IMG/VR virus record: IMGVR_UViG_3300031368_000001
Span: 44,286 to 108,285 of that record
Origin: a virus
Direction: 5' to 3' (one strand)
DNA length: 64,000 nucleotides
Made by a program: the position numbers and the translations under genes. The notes below the pieces were generated by a model. It did no database searches and was not told the DNA's origin. It saw only the letters and a list, made by a program, of their open reading frames with translations. Below, piece after piece: positions 2,855 through 62,114 of this stretch. Within the stretch, counting starts at the first letter, position 1; every line of letters begins with the position of its first letter.

Positions 2855-2897
2855 GTTTATATACAGATATTTTTCTGGTTAATACTGTGCGTTATAC
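2855..2897 (+). mobile_element. attI-like primary recombination site A heading the left cassette array
   Basis: GTTTATATACAGATATTTTTCTGGTTAATACTGTGC/GTT; 36/39 identical to the reverse complement of 62076-62114; GTTATACGC (2891-2899) is the exact reverse complement of GCGTATAAC (3107-3115) closing cassette 1. Confidence 0.75.
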
Positions 2898-2915
2898 GCA
2901 AAAGGAAACTTAAAT

Positions 2916-3107
2916 ATGAAATATATATATGCTGTACTCAGGGAGACAGGTGGAGCACACAAAAGTATGGACGTAATGAGCGTGTGGACAAACAAAAAAC
3001 TCGCCCAGAAAGAGGCTAATAAATTGAATGTATTAGCATCGGAGGGCTATGAATGTGAAGTGCGTAGATGGATTGTAAATGAAACTGGTGATACAATTAA
3101 CTGGTAG
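2916..3107 (+). CDS. cassette A1 hypothetical protein
   Basis: 63-aa ORF between GTT 2891 and attC 3109. Confidence 0.7.
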   Translation: MKYIYAVLRETGGAHKSMDVMSVWTNKKLAQKEANKLNVLASEGYECEVRRWIVNETGDTINW

Positions 3108-3108
3108 C

Positions 3109-3167
3109 GTATAACCATGCCCCTGAAGCCAACAGCAAATAGCTGCGGCTTACCGGCGGCGTTAGGA
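3109..3167 (+). repeat. attC site A1
   Basis: GTATAAC-CATGCCCCTGAAGCC...GGCTTACCGGCGGC-GTTAGGA; nearly the same sequence as attC 61865-61923 (-). Confidence 0.88.
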
Positions 3168-3174
3168 GTCAACA

Positions 3175-3444
3175 ATGAGTGTTGTCACAGATATTATTTT
3201 GGTTACTGCTATTGAGGATGGCGCATATAGACCATCATTCGACTTAGTTAAAGTCGACCAATACGCAGGCGGAGGCAAGGCGGTACAGTGCGATGTGTTT
3301 ATGTCAGCCGTTAACTACTTGGTTTTAGAGGATTTACTTGATTGGTTCAAGTCTGTAAGATGGGAATATCCAGAACAGGTGCAACTTTTTGTTAAAGGCG
3401 AACACGACGACAAGTTTGCTGTGTACTGCCCTGAAAACTCCTAA
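3175..3444 (+). CDS. cassette A2 hypothetical protein
   Basis: 89-aa ORF; cassette starts GTTAGGAGT and ends ACTCCTAAC (9-bp perfect complement); the stop codon lies in the R'' box. Confidence 0.75.
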   Translation: MSVVTDIILVTAIEDGAYRPSFDLVKVDQYAGGGKAVQCDVFMSAVNYLVLEDLLDWFKSVRWEYPEQVQLFVKGEHDDKFAVYCPENS

Positions 3445-3505
3445 CCAATCGTTCAACAACCGACCGCCGATACAGCCCTGTGGCGGGTTAACTCAAACGT
3501 TAGGT
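3439..3505 (+). repeat. attC site A2
   Basis: TCCTAAC...CCGCC..GGCGG GTTAACTCAAAC GTTAGGT hairpin. Confidence 0.85.
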
Positions 3506-3669
3506 GGCAAGCATGAGAAAGCCTTTGACAGGGCATAGGCCATATCCGAGTGAAAGGATAGTACAGCCCATGGATAAGGCATCACACATGCAAGTCTGGT
3601 TGGCTATAACTATTATTGGCAATTAGCATTGCTGGTAGTTTAGGCAGTTCGATTCTGCCATTGCCACCT
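3503..3669 (+). ncRNA. ORF-less cassette A3 encoding a structured RNA with tRNA-like acceptor stem and T-arm
   Basis: GGTGGCAA/TTGCCACC terminal stem; GGCAG-TTCGATT-CTGCC T-arm; nested stems GCATG/CATGC, GCCTT/AAGGC, GGGC/GCCC, TATCC/GGATA. Confidence 0.6.
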
Positions 3670-3727
3670 AATAAATCCCTGAACCAGACGCCATAAAGCT
3701 CGGCGCTGGTTAGCTCAAGCGTTAAGG
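3666..3727 (+). repeat. attC site A3
   Basis: ACCTAAT...AACCAG-CGCC...GGCG-CTGGTTAGCTCAAGC-GTTAAGG. Confidence 0.82.
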
Positions 3728-3736
3728 AGGAAAAAA

Positions 3737-3895
3737 ATGAAAATGTCAGTAAAAGAGTTTGATTCATTGACAAAGAGAGATTTTGACAATGGAGCGGTTA
3801 GGGATGCTATTCGCAATAGCTTAAAAGAGTGTGAAAAATTGCTTGCCTCCCAACAAGTCGTTGAAGCAGACCGCGCTAATCGCACGACTGATTAA
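3737..3895 (+). CDS. cassette A4 hypothetical protein (52 aa, not in ORF track)
   Basis: AAGGAGG RBS immediately after GTT 3721; MKMSVKEFDSLTKRDFDNGAVRDAIRN...; reads into the attC. Confidence 0.65.
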   Translation: MKMSVKEFDSLTKRDFDNGAVRDAIRNSLKECEKLLASQQVVEADRANRTTD

Positions 3896-3909
3896 CTCAG
3901 GCGTTATAA
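3848..3909 (+). repeat. attC site A4
   Basis: TCCCAAC-AAGTCGTTGAAGCAGAC...TGATTAACTCAGGC-GTTATAA. Confidence 0.75.
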
Positions 3910-3922
3910 TTTAAGAGGAAAA

Positions 3923-4171
3923 ATGAAAGAAGAAAAAAAAATATGCGACATGATTTTAAGTACTGTTTCACGCTTCAATGATGCTCAAAGTATTGGGATT
4001 GAGGTTCTAGAGAAATATAAGAACATGGATAAAGGCATAGTTCCAGAGTTGCAAGAAATCGCTTTTCATGTTCAGAGTTTAGCACGAGGCTGGCGTTCTC
4101 AGCAAGATCGGGCAGATGAGTGTTATGAGAAATATGCTGCATATAAAAAATATTGCAATGAAAATCTATAA
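3923..4171 (+). CDS. cassette A5 hypothetical protein (attC reduced to R'' CTATAAC)
   Basis: 82-aa ORF after GTTATAATT, ending ATCTATAAC with no following hairpin. Confidence 0.65.
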   Translation: MKEEKKICDMILSTVSRFNDAQSIGIEVLEKYKNMDKGIVPELQEIAFHVQSLARGWRSQQDRADECYEKYAAYKKYCNENL

Positions 4172-4189
4172 CAATAAGGAGGAAAAACC

Positions 4190-4459
4190 ATGCCAGGAGT
4201 AATTAATTACACAAAGCTCCCAGAAAGTCTAAGAGGGGGAGCACAAAGATGGATAGAAAATGGAATAGTTCCAGGAAGTTTTCTCACAGCAGTGATCCGT
4301 AATGATCTAACAGAAAGCTTTGCACAAGCTGATTATATTAATATCACTAAATTACAAGATATTGTGCACTTCTTTTACTGGGAAGCTCCAAGCCAGTGCT
4401 GGGGCTCAAAGGAAAAGATGATTGCATGGGGGAAAAAATTTAATGAGATAAGACCATGA
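4190..4459 (+). CDS. conserved phage hypothetical protein
   Basis: PGSFLTAVIRNDL...A...APSQCWGS pattern seen in phage small proteins; AAGGAGG RBS. Confidence 0.7.
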   Translation: MPGVINYTKLPESLRGGAQRWIENGIVPGSFLTAVIRNDLTESFAQADYINITKLQDIVHFFYWEAPSQCWGSKEKMIAWGKKFNEIRP

Positions 4460-4719
4460 ATATGAGAAGCGCTATGGCCAGCGCAAGAGCGAGAACTTTA
4501 AATGAAAAATTCCATAAAAGTGCTGAAAACACTGTAAATAGATTACTAACAAGCCCCACACATTCAGCAAGAGTCTCTACAAAGTTAGCTAAACATATTT
4601 TGATACAACATGAAACTCTCTTATATAATGGAATAGTATATTCTACTCACGTAAGAAATATAGGCGCTGGTGTAAAGGAATTATATTTAAAGGAATTTCA
4701 TGAGGAGATAAGACCATGA
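4456..4719 (+). CDS. hypothetical protein
   Basis: ATGA-coupled to the upstream ORF. Confidence 0.65.
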   Translation: MNMRSAMASARARTLNEKFHKSAENTVNRLLTSPTHSARVSTKLAKHILIQHETLLYNGIVYSTHVRNIGAGVKELYLKEFHEEIRP

Positions 4720-4988
4720 CTGATAATGATGCCATGACCGACAATAACACCATCCGTGATGTAAACACCGTCCGTGATGTAAACACCGTCCGTGATGTAA
4801 ACACCGTCCGTGATGTAATAAAATTTAAAGTACATGTGATAAGAACAGGCTGGGCAAGTTTGGATATTGCTATCGCTGCAAAAGATAAGGATAGTGCAAA
4901 AACAAAAATTATGGATACTATTGGAGACTATGAATTCTCAGAATATGATGCTGAGTATGAAATAGAATCTATGGAGATAATACCATGA
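4716..4988 (+). CDS. hypothetical protein with NTVRDV repeats
   Basis: ATGA-coupled; contains an 18-bp tandem repeat. Confidence 0.6.
   Translation: MTDNDAMTDNNTIRDVNTVRDVNTVRDVNTVRDVIKFKVHVIRTGWASLDIAIAAKDKDSAKTKIMDTIGDYEFSEYDAEYEIESMEIIP
4746..4817 (+). repeat. 18-bp tandem repeat AACACCGTCCGTGATGTA x4 (extra copy at 5042-5059)
   Basis: Read directly from sequence. Confidence 0.9.
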
Positions 4989-5212
4989 CTGACAATACTA
5001 TGACTGATAATACCATGACCGATAATAATATGACTGATAATAACACCGTCCGTGATGTAATGAAAGATCGTATCCGGGATCTGTTGGCTGGATATTTTAG
5101 GATAGATAATTTAGATGTAGACGCTGATCTCGTAGCCAATATAGCTGATGAAGCTTTTTCGGTGACAGGGATAAGTGAGAAAGAACAGGATGAGGAGTGG
5201 AAAATTTTATAG
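4985..5212 (+). CDS. hypothetical protein with MTDNT repeats
   Basis: ATGA-coupled; N-terminus shares repeats with the previous ORF. Confidence 0.6.
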   Translation: MTDNTMTDNTMTDNNMTDNNTVRDVMKDRIRDLLAGYFRIDNLDVDADLVANIADEAFSVTGISEKEQDEEWKIL

Positions 5213-5407: not shown

Positions 5408-5587
5408 ATGAATACTTACATAGGCACTTACCAGGATATGATAGAAAGAACTGTAGAGCTGATCCTTGCCGCGGCAGAAAAAATTCATAATAAAGATGCT
5501 ATAAGTCGGATTTACACGGCCAACAGAGAGGTTGACACAAAAATTGGCAATATTATGGAGAATATCAGAAAGAAGAAGAGATCATGA
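5408..5587 (+). CDS. hypothetical protein
   Basis: ORF 5327-5587 in track; internal ATG (MNTYIG) is the more plausible start. Confidence 0.5.
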   Translation: MNTYIGTYQDMIERTVELILAAAEKIHNKDAISRIYTANREVDTKIGNIMENIRKKKRS

Positions 5588-5799
5588 CTAAACAGGAAAA
5601 GCGTAAGTACTGCATCGGCTGTAGAGACAATTTCTACAACGGCAATAATCCATATGGCATTAAGGAATGCTGGAATCTTAAAGATGCAAAATTCGTGAAA
5701 AGAAAAAAGATTCCTATAGATTTGAGCCCACCTTATGATCATATAAAAAAACAGAAAGTTTTGAGCTGCTATGGCCAAAAGGGGTATGTATATTGGTAG
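5584..5799 (+). CDS. small Cys-rich phage protein
   Basis: KYCIGCRDNFYNGNNPYGIKECW motif; ATGA-coupled. Confidence 0.7.
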   Translation: MTKQEKRKYCIGCRDNFYNGNNPYGIKECWNLKDAKFVKRKKIPIDLSPPYDHIKKQKVLSCYGQKGYVYW

Positions 5800-5802
5800 T
5801 TA

Positions 5803-5897
5803 GGTGGTAAATGCTGCTTATAAGCAGAGGGTCAGCTTGTATCTGACGTTTGATAGTAAACAAAACTATCATGCAGGGTTAAATCTGTATACCACCT
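5803..5897 (+). ncRNA. ORF-less cassette encoding a tRNA-like cloverleaf (TGT in anticodon position, long variable arm)
   Basis: GGTGGTA/TACCACC acceptor; CTGCT-TATA-AGCAG D-like arm; GTCAG-CTTGTAT-CTGAC anticodon arm; TGATAGT/ACTATCA extra arm; TGCAG-GGTTAAAT-CTGTA T-like arm; flanked by GTTA/TAAC. Confidence 0.65.
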
Positions 5898-5951
5898 AAC
5901 CAACCCACTAAGCTCGATAGCTAAAATTGCTGGTTAATTCAAGCGTTAGAT
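5894..5951 (+). repeat. attC site after the tRNA-like cassette
   Basis: ACCTAAC...CTGGTTAATTCAAGC-GTTAGAT; right arm resembles attC A3. Confidence 0.75.
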
Positions 5952-5968
5952 TCATCAAGGAGGTAAAC

Positions 5969-6166
5969 ATGGAAATAGACGAAATTATAAATAACTTGGG
6001 CAAAAAAATATCAACTCCAAAAGGAAATCAATTATTAGCTGGTTTTCAAATTGCAGTGTTAATGGAAAACAATAAATTAAAAGCATATCCTCAATCAATA
6101 TCATTAATCTGTTGGTCAGATAATGGTGGAAAATATATGCATTGGGCAATTGATTGTAAAAAATAA
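5969..6166 (+). CDS. cassette hypothetical protein
   Basis: AAGGAGGT RBS, MEIDEII..., stop codon within AAATAAC. Confidence 0.65.
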   Translation: MEIDEIINNLGKKISTPKGNQLLAGFQIAVLMENNKLKAYPQSISLICWSDNGGKYMHWAIDCKK

Positions 6167-6221
6167 CAAGCCGGTTGAGTCTAACGCTCATAAACTCGCG
6201 TGTCTTACCTCACCATTATAC
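6161..6221 (+). repeat. degenerate attC site
   Basis: AAATAAC-AAGCCGGTTGAG...CTTACCTCACC-ATTATAC (GTT mutated to ATT). Confidence 0.5.
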
Positions 6222-6254: not shown

Positions 6255-6404
6255 ATGAAAGTAGACCTAATAGCTATTGGCTATGAATGGATCTGTCTGA
6301 AGTGTGGACATCTTAATAATGAGTTCGAGATATTAAAAGAAGTTACCTGCGTAGAATGCGGTGAGATTTATGAAGTAGGTGAGACAGAACATGCGTGTGG
6401 GTGA
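6255..6404 (+). CDS. small zinc-ribbon protein (49 aa, not in ORF track)
   Basis: MKVDLIAIGYEWICLKCGHLN...TCVECGEIY, two CxxC motifs. Confidence 0.6.
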   Translation: MKVDLIAIGYEWICLKCGHLNNEFEILKEVTCVECGEIYEVGETEHACG

Positions 6405-6465
6405 GACAGAACATGCGTGTGGGTGAGGCAGAACATGCTTATAGGTGAGACAGAACATACTTATA
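6378..6465 (+). repeat. 22-bp tandem repeat GGTGAGACAGAACATGCGTGTG x4
   Basis: Read directly; the last two copies have diverged. Confidence 0.9.
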
Positions 6466-6498
6466 GATAAAAAAGCAAAATAGAGGAGGTGAGTATAC

Positions 6499-58659: not shown

Positions 58660-58703
58660 TACTTATCTCCTAACGCCGCTAATAACCTGCCCAAAATAGC
58701 AGT

Positions 58704-58892
58704 TTATTTTGGGTCAAAGTTCATTTGTTTGTTAGATGGATGATTAAGAAGTTTTTCAGTGCTTTTCACTATCTGCTGAAAAAAATTAAGCAAAAATTCT
58801 AAATCCCTTTTGGTAAACTGGCCTTCTTTCATTGCCACCATGATTTGTCTACAAGCATTTTCTATAATTTCTGCACTTATCATATTGTCCAT
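58704..58892 (-). CDS. cassette B11 hypothetical protein
   Basis: Cassette GTTAGATGGA...TCCATCTAAC (10-bp perfect complement); the ORF reads into the attC. Confidence 0.65.
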   Translation of the reverse strand: MDNMISAEIIENACRQIMVAMKEGQFTKRDLEFLLNFFQQIVKSTEKLLNHPSNKQMNFDPK

Positions 58893-58945
58893 CTAACGCC
58901 TGAGATAACCCGCCTGCGATTAGCAGATCGGAGTTCAGAGACTGG

Positions 58946-59167
58946 TTATGCATCTTTGCAACTTTCAATAAGAACCATTCTAAGCGCGTCCATTTCCTGA
59001 GTAGCATGGTAATAGAACTGTTTGATTTTTGCTAACAGTCTTTCTTCAACAAATTGCATCTGAATTTGTACTTCTTTGCTACCACGAAAATCACCTATTT
59101 CCTCTATTTTCCGTTCAAGACTGATTCGCTGTCTCACATATTGTTCATATGCTTCTTTATCAAACAT
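58946..59167 (-). CDS. cassette B10 hypothetical protein
   Basis: ATTATGCA...TGCATAAC ends; stop codon in R''. Confidence 0.65.
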   Translation of the reverse strand: MFDKEAYEQYVRQRISLERKIEEIGDFRGSKEVQIQMQFVEERLLAKIKQFYYHATQEMDALRMVLIESCKDA

Positions 59168-59208
59168 GGTCTGGAACCTTCTTTCTTAAATCTGCATAAT
59201 GCCAAGCA

Positions 59209-59493
59209 TCACTCGCCAGCGTTTTTACTGGTCGAGTGAATGCTATCGTTAGCGACATTTTTATGGTGCTCGCTAAATTGCTCAAACAAAACATCAAGTT
59301 TGCTCTCCATTTTTCTATCACAATCCTCGCACAGATAAGTATGTCGCCTCTTATTTTCGGTCGACACAAGATGATAATGCTGCGAGCATGCTTCCTTTCC
59401 GCAGGACCAGCACGTAAGGATGGTATGCAAATCGTCTTCTCTTGCACCGCAAATATCACAATATTTAACTTCAACTTCCTCTTTTTTCCTCAT
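59209..59493 (-). CDS. cassette B9 zinc-finger protein
   Basis: CDIC...CWSC...CSQH...CEDC; AAGGAGG RBS. Confidence 0.7.
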   Translation of the reverse strand: MRKKEEVEVKYCDICGAREDDLHTILTCWSCGKEACSQHYHLVSTENKRRHTYLCEDCDRKMESKLDVLFEQFSEHHKNVANDSIHSTSKNAGE

Positions 59494-59570
59494 CTACTAT
59501 CCTCCTTTTAAGGATTGCTAACGCCTGACCTAACCCGCCCAGCTATGCTGGGTCGGAGTTGAGTGAATTG

Positions 59571-59783
59571 TTATAAAGATTTTTTTAGTTTTATCATTGA
59601 TGAAACACCTATTAAAAAAGGCATAACTGCACCAACAAAAGGCATCCATATTGCATCCCACCAAGTAATTAAATAAGGATCTTCTGTCATTGTACCGACT
59701 TTAGCAACCAGTAAACCATAGAAAAAAGCACACCAAGCTATTCCTAAAATAAATGTTGGCCAATCTACTCTATCTTTAAACAT
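59571..59783 (-). CDS. cassette B8 two-TM membrane protein
   Basis: Two hydrophobic helices; 16-bp perfect end complementarity GTTATAAAGATTTTTT. Confidence 0.7.
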   Translation of the reverse strand: MFKDRVDWPTFILGIAWCAFFYGLLVAKVGTMTEDPYLITWWDAIWMPFVGAVMPFLIGVSSMIKLKKSL

Positions 59784-59858
59784 TATTTAAACCTCCTAAA
59801 AAATCTTTATAACGCCGCCGGTAAGCCGCGCTTTATTGCGTCGGCTGGAGTAGCCTTG

Positions 59859-60404
59859 TTATATTCGTTTTTGTCCATAATCCTTCTTTTTGATTTTTCC
59901 CATTCTTCCATCAGGGTGGTGAAATACGATTCCTTCAATGTCCTTATCTTTCATGAAATCGGATATACCTTCAAATGTTCTCTGCACGGTTTTAAATACT
60001 TGAGCTTTCTCATGTTTCACAAGGGCATGAACATTATATCCCTCTGGATTCCCTTGAATTTTTGGCCCGACAAGCTCATATGTGCCATCAGATAGCTTTT
60101 CTGAGAAAGTTTCCATGTGCCACCGGTCTTCTTTAAGGCTTCGATCTACTGGAACCCAACCAACACGCTTCCCTGTATTTTCATCAAATTCTTCTTCAAT
60201 AAAATTATTTGGTGCAACCCTACCCTTTTTTACTTCTCTGCGTTTGAAATAATTCCCGTTTTCTATTTTTACGCATGTGCCGTCATATTTTCGAGTCGCC
60301 ACGCCTTCACCATTAAAAACCCATTCACAATCAAGATGATGTTCATGAAGGATTTCACGCATATTCTCAGGGTTCCTTTTAAAGATTGTTGGTATTTTCC
60401 TCAT
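59859..60404 (-). CDS. cassette B7 RNA-ligase-like protein (DUF5565/RLIG1-like)
   Basis: ATRKYDGTC (motif I KxDG), TYELVGPKIQGNP, IEGIVFHH..G.M.KIK. Confidence 0.75.
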   Translation of the reverse strand: MRKIPTIFKRNPENMREILHEHHLDCEWVFNGEGVATRKYDGTCVKIENGNYFKRREVKKGRVAPNNFIEEEFDENTGKRVGWVPVDRSLKEDRWHMETFSEKLSDGTYELVGPKIQGNPEGYNVHALVKHEKAQVFKTVQRTFEGISDFMKDKDIEGIVFHHPDGRMGKIKKKDYGQKRI

Positions 60405-60482
60405 GACTCTTCCTCCTTTCAAAGAATATAACGCTTGAGCTAACCAGCCGTGTGATTAGCACGGTCTGAGTTGAGTGATTCG

Positions 60483-60707
60483 TTATAATTGTCCAGCATC
60501 TTGTAATATTTCTGGTGTTACATCTTTTTTCTCAATATACTCACACCGGAGATACCCCCCTCCTTGGTCAATTCTATTTACCAATATAAACCTACAGCTT
60601 TCTTTGCTCAAGGCTGTTTCAATAAGTTTATGTTCAATGTATGCATTGGCCGGAGTAATGTCCCATTGACTCAATGCAGCCCATCCGTATCTTTCACCTG
60701 TATTCAT
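60483..60707 (-). CDS. cassette B6 hypothetical protein
   Basis: GTTATAATT...AATTATAAC ends; GGAGG RBS. Confidence 0.65.
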   Translation of the reverse strand: MNTGERYGWAALSQWDITPANAYIEHKLIETALSKESCRFILVNRIDQGGGYLRCEYIEKKDVTPEILQDAGQL

Positions 60708-60751
60708 TTTGACCCTCCCTAAATTATAACGCCTGCGATCAGCCGCAGCGG

Positions 60752-60952
60752 TTAGCTGTCGGCTTCAGAGGCCTGGTTATCTGTTTTCTCTATCAATACT
60801 TTTATCTCGTCTACACGTCGCTTGACATCTAAATCGCCTTTATATGACAACGTACCATAGAATGTTGGGTCAAGTCCTTTGGGTACAATCTTTACCCAAT
60901 CTGGAACAAATGACATTAAATATTTGCATGCCTCCAATAGATCGCTTTGCAT
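60752..60952 (-). CDS. cassette B5 hypothetical protein
   Basis: GTTATCTGT...ACAGATAAC ends; AAGGAG RBS before MQSDLL. Confidence 0.65.
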   Translation of the reverse strand: MQSDLLEACKYLMSFVPDWVKIVPKGLDPTFYGTLSYKGDLDVKRRVDEIKVLIEKTDNQASEADS

Positions 60953-61017
60953 TATTTTAATCTCCTTTACAGATAACGCCTGAGCTAACCCACCCAAAAT
61001 AGCGTAGCTATTGAGGG

Positions 61018-61239
61018 TCAGAGTTCAGGGGCCTGGTTATGTGATTCAATTATTTCTTTGATACCATTCAGAACATGCCTCATATTACTTGCTGAAATTG
61101 CATCAAGGGTCATACCGTGCTGTTTCAAAACTTTATGCGCTTTCTTAAAATCAGGCTCAGGGAAAACGCTTAATGGATACGCATTAATCCAAGTTTTAAT
61201 TTTACGCATCTTATCTTGTAATTCTTCTAATTCGCTCAT
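61018..61239 (-). CDS. cassette B4 conserved phage hypothetical protein
   Basis: W.NAYPL.VFPEPD..KA..VL...GMTLDAISAS.MRH. Confidence 0.7.
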   Translation of the reverse strand: MSELEELQDKMRKIKTWINAYPLSVFPEPDFKKAHKVLKQHGMTLDAISASNMRHVLNGIKEIIESHNQAPEL

Positions 61240-61312
61240 TTTCCCTCCGTATAACGCCTGAGCTCACCAGCCAGATTAGCAAAGCTATATCTGGTCGGAG
61301 TTCAGGTATTTG

Positions 61313-61522
61313 TTATATTCCATCTTTCCATTGCTTATAATGTAAATCAACTTTCTTTTGGTCATACTCGAAAGAATTTATAGGAGTTCTACGAAGCTGC
61401 ATAAGTTTTATTAATATATGCTCATACGCAGTCTCAGCTTTCCCTGTTCCGTTATCCATTACAGAACATACTATGTCGATAATTTCTTCATCATTACTAC
61501 GGTCAATATAATTAACGCTCAT
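61313..61522 (-). CDS. cassette B3 hypothetical protein
   Basis: GGAGG RBS; stop codon in R''. Confidence 0.65.
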   Translation of the reverse strand: MSVNYIDRSNDEEIIDIVCSVMDNGTGKAETAYEHILIKLMQLRRTPINSFEYDQKKVDLHYKQWKDGI

Positions 61523-61603
61523 AACCTACCTCCAATTCATTAGAAATTTAACGCCTGACCTAACCAGCGGGCGTTTTACTAGCCCGTCTGGTTTAGGGAT
61601 TTG

Positions 61604-61849
61604 TTAGCCACGATTTTGTGGCCTCTCCTGATTGTCTTTTTCAATAGCTTCCATCAAATTTTGTAATGACTTTCGAGTATTTAATGATTGCCCGCCACCC
61701 GACAAAGTACAGAATTCAGCATTTTGTATGAAATGCTTTGATTCTTTTCGGTCGGGAATGATGGATACAATCATATCTCCATCATCTTGCTGACATATAA
61801 CCAACCGCCCTGTTGGACTCATATCTTCGTATCGTTCAACTTGCTTCAC
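61604..61849 (-). CDS. cassette B2 hypothetical protein
   Basis: GTG start after AAGGAGG; REDMSP.G.L....DDGD.IV...EFC..GGG.S. Confidence 0.65.
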   Translation of the reverse strand: MKQVERYEDMSPTGRLVICQQDDGDMIVSIIPDRKESKHFIQNAEFCTLSGGGQSLNTRKSLQNLMEAIEKDNQERPQNRG

Positions 61850-61889
61850 TTTATCCTCCTTGGTGCCTAACGCCGCCGATAAGCCGCAG

Positions 61890-62057
61890 CTATTCACTGT
61901 CGGCTTCAGTGGCTTGGTTAGATTTTTCTTCTTTTTCTACACATTCAAGGCATTTCTCTTCATTAAAATCGAATTCATCTGCCTCAAAAAGCTCCCAACA
62001 TTCAGTACAACGATATAATTTTGGAATGCCGGTATCATTAAACCAATTAGTCGCCAT
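61890..62057 (-). CDS. cassette B1 zinc-ribbon protein (55 aa, not in ORF track)
   Basis: MATNWFNDTGIPKLYRCTECWE...KCLECVE; AGGAGG RBS; reads into the attC. Confidence 0.6.
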   Translation of the reverse strand: MATNWFNDTGIPKLYRCTECWELFEADEFDFNEEKCLECVEKEEKSNQATEADSE

Positions 62058-62071
62058 AATTACCTCCTAAA

Positions 62072-62114
62072 ACCCAACGTACATTATTAACCAGAAAAAT
62101 ATCTATATATAAAC
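62072..62114 (-). mobile_element. attI-like primary recombination site B heading array B
   Basis: Minus strand GTTTATATATAGATATTTTTCTGGTTAATAATGTAC/GTT, 36/39 identical to 2855-2893. Confidence 0.75.

Follow-up and report, generated by a model that had tools for sequence, protein, structure and literature searches.

The usual cargo of integron cassettes is taken to be protein genes, apart from a few cassettes that carry a promoter or a small RNA. Stable RNAs or processing signals with a tRNA-like shape are known from the species 1 and 2 RNAs of T4, mascRNA and the tRNA punctuation of mitochondrial transcripts; none of these is a mobile cassette or has flanking recombination sites, and their processing has been demonstrated. 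For cassettes without an open reading frame (ORF), promoter activity has been documented (PMC6557892; bioRxiv 10.1101/2023.11.21.568050), and sRNA-Xcc1 of Xanthomonas, named in integron papers, is the precedent for an RNA as a cassette product. No cassette holding only a tRNA-shaped RNA appears in the listed integron papers on ORF-less cassettes. Arrays of attC sites in phages, with small cassettes in the same direction and no IntI in the record, were described as phage CALINs by Qi et al. 2023 (PMC9892861), a paper in which tRNA is not mentioned. The closest tRNA forms in outline are tRNA-Sec and the allo-tRNAs, which combine a long, tetraloop-capped D stem, a lengthened anticodon stem and a long extra arm with an acceptor branch of 12 bp (Mukai et al. 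2017, PMC5389517). For tRNA-Sec and allo-tRNAs together, this branch is split 8/4, 9/3 or 8/5 and followed by a discriminator G73 or U73; for allo-tRNAs the split is 8/4 or 9/3, again with G73 or U73. Allo-tRNAs are picked up by the tRNA-Sec covariance model, and some of them, located in mobile or toxin-antitoxin contexts, may not decode (PMC5389517).

The window, that is, the whole stretch of DNA analysed here (64,000 nucleotides), is the last 64 kb of the 108,285-bp IMG/VR virus contig IMGVR_UViG_3300031368_000001. Its gene content comprises replication and helicase functions, a single true tRNA-Pro and runs of small genes that are tightly packed. Repeats of the attC type are present on both strands, and two integron-type cassette arrays were found, one on the + strand (2891-4172) and one on the - strand (62078-58674). 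Each array cassette comprises a single small gene, provided with a strong ribosome-binding site, and behind it an attC-like imperfect palindrome of 58-70 bp. Both arrays are headed by an identical 39-bp AT-rich site (2855-2893, +; 62076-62114, -), which ends at the GTT where the array starts. No match to the integron integrase (TIGR02249) or to other tyrosine recombinases (PF00589) was obtained in the 108-kb contig, which is 77% complete. These arrays share with the phage CALINs (PMC9892861) the traits listed above, and differ from them in being two and opposed, in having the same 39-bp head site, in a pairing of 9-16 bp between the cassette start and R'', and in including cassettes that appear to hold RNA only. 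The cassette proteins gave no functional hint, with the exception of a 187-aa protein encoded by cassette 59859-60422 (-), which matched an RNA ligase 1 (RLIG1) domain with an E value of 1e-10. Outside the arrays, the small ORFs at 4456-5212 contain in-frame tandem repeats of 15 and 18 nt (4707-5077), and four tandem copies of a 22-nt repeat lie behind ORF 6255-6404 (region 6375-6480).

The element under study (hereafter the 5799 element) occupies a cassette of 146 bases at 5800-5945 of the window (Table 1). This is a genuine integron-type cassette without a gene, and it stands, together with one further cassette, at a bare GTT behind a conserved phage early gene. The GTT overlaps the stop codon of that gene, ORF 5584-5799, which ends on G5799. 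The product is a 71-aa Cys-rich phage protein with 45 relatives, present in at least 43 viral contigs and in identical copy in five contigs; its family (70-80 aa, in which four cysteines and an NFYNGNN-type motif are invariant) has no Pfam match. In the closest fetched relative of this gene (L011, 73% identity) the next gene follows directly, without an element, and none of the 43 viral loci with relatives of the 71-aa protein showed an element behind the gene. An attC had been placed after the element by the first-pass annotation, and such a site was indeed found there; it matches the pattern of an inverse core RYYYAAC and a core GTTRRRY that flank an imperfect palindrome with bulged bases and unpaired spacers, and its right arm belongs to repeat family D6. 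Its bottom-strand fold is weak (-5.2 kcal/mol, z -0.9); the sister sites fold typically. A BLAST search of one attC against plasmids gave no match. Reading of the sequence upstream of the cassette revealed neither an attC nor an attI and, since the contig also has no integrase, the cassette is of the CALIN type and lies off any integron platform. The likeness to known ORF-less integron cassettes lies in the short attC-bounded unit without a protein gene in a cassette array; the differences are its position in a phage, outside any attI, and a promoter content no better than chance. The description of the unit as ORF-less, given from the start, holds in that no credible gene is present, but it is not strictly free of ORFs, as a GTG frame of 31 codons, without a ribosome-binding site, runs from 5804 to 5899 and ends in a TAA at 5897-5899.

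Table 1. Features of the 5799 cassette and its neighbours (window coordinates).
Feature	Position	Strand	Remarks
Cassette start and 5' strand of closing helix	5799..5809	+	Crossover between G5799 and T5800
Putative mature tRNA-shaped RNA	5804..5896	+	About 93 nt, G5804 to discriminator-like C5896; ends predicted, if cut like a tRNA precursor
D-like hairpin	5814-5827	+	RNAfold: 5 bp, 4-nt loop, no GG
Anticodon-like arm	5828-5850; core 5831-5847	+	5 bp, 7-nt loop 5836-5842, TGT 5838-5840
Long hairpin in class II variable-arm position	5851-5871	+	RNAfold: 7 bp, 7-nt loop
Degenerate T-like hairpin	5872-5889	+	6 bp, two of them G-T, with a 6-nt loop; 8-nt loop if read as 5 bp
3' strand of closing helix	5890..5900	+	Overlaps R'' of own attC
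attC-type site of the 5799 cassette	5894-5951	+	58 bp; R'' 5894-5900, R' 5945-5951; crossover between G5945 and T5946
Next cassette of two-cassette mini-array	5945..6221	+	ORF 5969-6166; decayed attC, core ATT not GTT (6215-6221)
Sister ORF-less cassette in + array	3499..3721 (element 3499-3672)	+	12-bp closing helix, inner multi-stem domain of about 80 nt, 12-bp hairpin, T arm

The fold of the element was evaluated with RNAfold on bases 5799-5900. The minimum free energy (MFE) structure, identical to the centroid, has a value of -38.4 kcal/mol (z -5.8), and none of 200 shuffled sequences was as stable. The closing stem is made of 11 Watson-Crick pairs out of 11 and encloses four hairpins with perfect, mismatch-free stems, so that sequence and RNAfold both bear out the four-arm cloverleaf described earlier (arms of 5 bp with a 4-nt loop and of 5 bp with a 7-nt loop, a long arm of 7 bp and a T-like arm). 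In the anticodon-like arm, the stem is formed by 5831-5835 and 5843-5847, two extra pairs follow beyond a G/G mismatch, and the loop carries the T33-like and A37-like bases of the U33/R37 pattern. Most of the fold signal comes from the closing stem, as the inner 80 nt without it gave a z of only -2.5, with 8 of 300 shuffles as stable; among 80-nt windows of matched GC content from this phage genome, the inner part falls in the top 0.9% and is moderately unusual, not extreme. The cloverleaf persists in a context of 196 nt, both as RNA and as bottom-strand DNA, and the two strands of the element fold well (z -5.8 and -5.9). In the context folds, the closing helix outcompetes the R box of the attC; in the bottom-strand DNA the cloverleaf forms and the attC retains only its inner stem.

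The extension of the closing helix by the recombination boxes, also proposed at first sight, was confirmed, and its 3' strand overlaps R''. The naming of this helix as an acceptor stem was weighed against the general geometry of the cassettes, for which the length of pairing between the first bases of each cassette and its own R'' end was measured. The first bases of the 5799 cassette are the complement of its own inverse core in all 11 pairs. In ORF-bearing cassettes whose sites are intact, the pairings measured 9, 9, 9, 9, 9, 10, 10 and 16 bp, and in the three ORF-less cassettes (5799, 3499 and that of the L010 contig described below, the last read from the sequence) 11, 12 and 12 bp, respectively. 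Across the array cassettes, the values ranged from 3 to 16 with a median of 9, and non-cognate pairs averaged 4.3 bp. Since cassettes with ORFs also pair over 9-16 bp, about nine of the 11 "acceptor" pairs of the 5799 element are accounted for by cassette geometry: the helix is real, but it is mostly the generic pairing of cassette ends. Textbook attC core sites measure 7 bp. The 9-16 bp of start/R'' pairing in the 2891-4172 and 58674-62078 arrays exceed this length and may reflect the binding needs of the integrase.

Direct searches did not recognise the element as a tRNA. ARAGORN called none at this position with default settings, and at ps40-80, with or without introns, no low-score call coincided with the proposed cloverleaf. 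In Rfam, no tRNA, tRNA-Sec, tmRNA or other family reached the gathering score on the element and, at E<=10, slices of 501 and 111 nt gave no match to RF00005 or to any other tRNA-clan family here, and the 111-nt slice none to any Rfam family. The ARAGORN searches, down to ps40, and those with the Rfam tRNA, tRNA-Sec and tmRNA models, at E<=10, thus weaken the tRNA reading, as do the mostly generic closing stem and the moderate inner fold. The bases involved in tertiary contacts, U8, G18/G19 and C56, are missing. When G5804 is taken as position +1, the base after the 7-nt acceptor strand is A5811 rather than U. No G is present in the 4-nt D loop, and the T-like loop includes TT and AAA, with an A at the position of C56 and a length of 6 or 8 nt instead of 7. 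A tRNA elbow is thus doubtful, the T loop having no C56 and the wrong length and the D loop no GG. The only canonical tRNA feature is the anticodon-type loop (7 nt, U33, purine 37, on a 5-bp stem). The helices of the acceptor branch can be read as 6+6 or 7+5, with C5896 or T5897 as the discriminator-like base depending on the register. The D stem and long extra arm resemble those of tRNA-Sec and allo-tRNAs only in outline; the lengthened anticodon stem and, if the helices are read in this way, the 12-bp branch also recall both, whereas the absence of any score with the Rfam tRNA and tRNA-Sec models and the odd T loop set the element apart from allo-tRNAs, as the 6/6 or 7/5 reading of the branch may do. 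A decayed pseudogene of an ordinary tRNA was rejected, because there is no alignment to the tRNA model and the stems are without mismatches.

A tRNA origin is supported by two sister cassettes without an ORF. In the + array of the window, the 3499 cassette contains a perfect T arm (about 3646-3662), with a 5-bp stem and a canonical 7-nt loop, which adjoins the 3' closing strand and is preceded by the 12-bp hairpin; its attC is at 3666-3727. No Rfam tRNA match was obtained for this cassette, and a peptide gene in its frame of 37-40 codons was rejected, as the frame has no homologue and no Pfam match. The other sister was retrieved by an attC-type scan of viral contigs, on the 50-kb phage contig IMGVR_UViG_3300031864_000003 (L010). 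This phage has no genes in common with that of the window, but their attC sites are up to 92% identical and the same 39-bp array-head site is present. Its ORF-less cassette lies between two attC sites at L010:1056-1256 (element 1056-1191). The Rfam tRNA model scored 33.5 bits at L010:1061-1187, above the cut-off of 29, with acceptor, D arm and T arm aligned and a 66-nt insert in place of the anticodon region; ARAGORN also calls this element once introns are allowed. The score above the cut-off in L010 and the T arm in 3499 show that tRNA-derived RNAs packaged as attC cassettes exist, and this result at the level of the family is firmer than the assignment of the 5799 element itself. The 39-bp site of the L010 contig (737-760) lies in the middle of the array, directly 3' of an attC; from this placement, it behaves as a mini-cassette of 36 bp would, or as a portable attI or promoter. 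Upstream of the array in the same contig, a tRNA-looking sequence was observed (L074:500-590) that has a T-loop motif and encodes its CCA end, with no Rfam report at the gathering score.

The three ORF-less cassettes have in common the start GTTAK followed by GTGGYA and a matching 3' end that runs into R''. Their first 11-12 bases are the same up to one compensated pair, T-A in 5799 and C-G in both sisters, and this start was found in none of the ORF-bearing cassettes of the two arrays of the window. In all three elements, 12 stacked base pairs, composed of the T or T-like stem and the closing helix, end at the G after the first five cassette bases, which is position +1 of the tRNA in the Rfam alignment of the L010 element; by analogy with the latter, the acceptor-like part of the 5799 element may be taken to start at G5804. 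A covariance model built from the 5799 sequence alone (R1) found its best foreign match in the L010 element, with 18.7 bits and a rough E value of about 0.04 in 650 kb, and the alignment covers the closing helix, the extra-arm hairpin and the T arm. The T-like hairpin of 5799, although its loop is non-canonical, aligned to the L010 T arm with a p of 0.0044 against shuffles, in a comparison that was chosen after looking. The links between 5799 and its sisters are in general short stretches picked after looking, and their E values are rough. The sense strand is the more stable one in all three elements, with 3, 7 and 7 G-U pairs on the sense strand against 0, 4 and 2 on the antisense strand, respectively.

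Homologues of the 5799 element were sought in several collections. The closing-stem pattern gave none in viral contigs, recovered only the L010 contig again from metagenome contigs, and produced only chance matches and palindromes in GTDB genomes. Searches with blastn of the 5799 and 3499 cassettes against INPHARED phages and PLSDB plasmids returned nothing, and blastn and nhmmer against 53 fetched loci revealed no homologue of 5799. Two patterns anchored on the T loop recovered the L010 cassette as the only one in viral contigs, an attI-like pattern found only L010, and the 65-aa protein encoded downstream has no relative in viral contigs. With no homologue in the collections searched, no covariation could be obtained. 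A second copy in the genome was rejected, the only other R1 match in the contig being an unrelated 30-nt tandem repeat, and so was a terminator, as no T-tract or terminator-like site is present. The searches also led to a group I intron (L005:2354-2702; 76 bits in Rfam) on an unrelated viral contig that the attC pattern had retrieved, and to palindromes of about 41 nt with perfect stems in an Anaerovoracaceae MAG (L081:4674-4941), 75 nt apart with near-identical spacers, which are not a CRISPR array. An AT-rich unit of 30 nt is repeated in tandem about six times at L084:19695-19880 (contig bases, minus strand), 3' of a gene; this long, hairpin-prone block looks iteron-like or origin-like.

The explanation favoured here, though tentatively, is that the 5799 element is a strongly diverged tRNA-derived RNA cassette that is co-transcribed and probably cut out by tRNA-processing enzymes, and that it does not act as a normal decoder. 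It would then belong with 3499-3672 and L010:1056-1191 in a small group of tRNA-derived RNA cassettes, a grouping suggested by the sequence likenesses described above. The cassette would be transcribed on its sense strand within an early polycistronic RNA, and the transcript would fold into the compact four-arm structure, in which the closing helix would be the usual R'/R'' pairing of cassette ends, prolonged by a short acceptor-like helix. Host enzymes that process tRNA ends (RNase P, RNase Z or RNase E, and the CCA-adding enzyme) may recognise the stacked 12-bp unit of closing helix and T-like stem, and cleavage would separate the transcript of the neighbouring genes and release a presumably stable RNA of about 93 nt, which would not be a normal decoding tRNA. 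The likeness to the T4 species 1 and 2 RNAs, mascRNA and the mitochondrial punctuation is that of a non-decoding tRNA shape within a longer transcript, right after a stop codon; processing, demonstrated for those RNAs, is predicted for the 5799 element. Of the first-pass proposal of a mobile non-canonical tRNA or tRNA mimic, the attC-bounded cassette, the cloverleaf-like fold on the sense strand and the tRNA ancestry of two sisters with shared ends have been retained, and the tRNA identity of the element has not, for want of a tRNA match and of the contact bases.

Among the rival explanations, an absence of any RNA role is unlikely: the element would be a remnant eroding within a stranded cassette, or else a feature of single-stranded DNA in which the 11-bp helix, by outcompeting the R-box pairing of the attC, locks the cassette in place. 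The stability of both strands, the formation of the cloverleaf in bottom-strand DNA with the attC reduced to its inner stem, the weakness of the cassette's own attC, the decay of the neighbouring sites, and the fact that without an upstream attC or attI the cassette cannot leave by attC x attC recombination are all consistent with this explanation. However, neutral decay would hardly leave four stems without one mismatch, the G-T pairs point to the sense strand, and the sisters carry unmistakable tRNA parts with no known role in DNA. Slightly less probable still is a working non-canonical tRNA, allo-tRNA-like, reading ACA and charged with Ser, Thr or another amino acid, or else a decoy or spare target for anticodon nucleases, supplied as a cassette. 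Such a function is suggested by the 7-nt loop with U33, UGU and A37 on a 5-bp stem, and by a tetraloop-capped D stem of 5 bp and a long extra arm, which together give the look of tRNA-Sec and allo-tRNAs (PMC5389517); of the three ORF-less cassettes, only the 5799 element has its anticodon-type arm (UGU) intact. No Thr codon is used more often in the phage than ACA (37%, joint first), its single true tRNA reads CCA, which makes up 41% of its Pro codons, and the RNA-ligase-like cassette of the other array would fit a theme of tRNA damage. Allo-tRNAs are found by their likeness to the tRNA-Sec model (PMC5389517), whereas the 5799 element matched neither the tRNA nor the tRNA-Sec model of Rfam at E<=10; it lacks U8, G18/G19 and C56, its discriminator-like base is a C where Ser identity needs G or U, and no anticodon nuclease or synthetase context was found. 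Neither sister has a normal anticodon arm, and decoding is therefore not the common trait of the group. Aminoacylation, mistranslation or a decoy role for the 5799 element is speculation. The wider proposal, that integron recombination in phages moves tRNA-derived RNAs and that the 5799 element is a functional tRNA-Thr mimic, acting against a host anticodon nuclease as a decoy or replacement target or serving as an allo-tRNA-like adaptor that recodes ACA, swapped between phages and hosts through the host integrase, is improbable as a whole.

The documented promoter activity of ORF-less cassettes (PMC6557892; bioRxiv 10.1101/2023.11.21.568050) and a sigma-70-like match of 9/12 at 5843-5872 would be compatible with a regulatory cassette, in which an internal promoter or another cis signal drives the cassette gene 5969-6166. 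This is quite improbable, given that the six promoter-like sites of the region show no excess over shuffles (4.4 +/- 1.8), that the hexamers sit within stems, and that no terminator-like site is present; the four hairpins and the ends shared with the tRNA-derived cassettes would also be left unexplained. The least probable explanation, to which very little credence can be given, is a micro-protein of 31 residues translated from the GTG at 5804. The frame is open and, like those of several ORF cassettes in the two arrays, ends with a stop codon inside R'', but every ORF cassette read has a strong ribosome-binding site 5-9 nt before its ATG, and there is none here. By our own estimate, chance alone would leave 31 codons open in one of three frames in a sizeable fraction of stretches like this one. 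The same GTG opens 40 codons in 3499, with no homologue, and about 17 in L010 by our own reading, and with lengths that differ among the sisters the frame is not conserved.

ORF-less cassettes, clusters of attC sites in phages and tRNA-like RNAs in phages are already known, and what appears to be new is a cassette that contains a tRNA-shaped RNA and nothing else. The reading of the 5799 element as a diverged tRNA-derived RNA cassette is directly testable, because the locus is small and self-contained. Together with its two sisters, the element indicates that tRNA-derived RNAs can be packaged in units that are bounded by attC sites and mobile on their own, and that phages collect such RNA cassettes beside their early genes. 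These cassettes may move small RNAs, with a function that, for the 5799 element, is putative. If the RNA is made and processed, the finding would open a route of horizontal exchange for phage tRNA-like RNAs, the roles of which are mostly unknown, and would add a new class of cargo to integrons.
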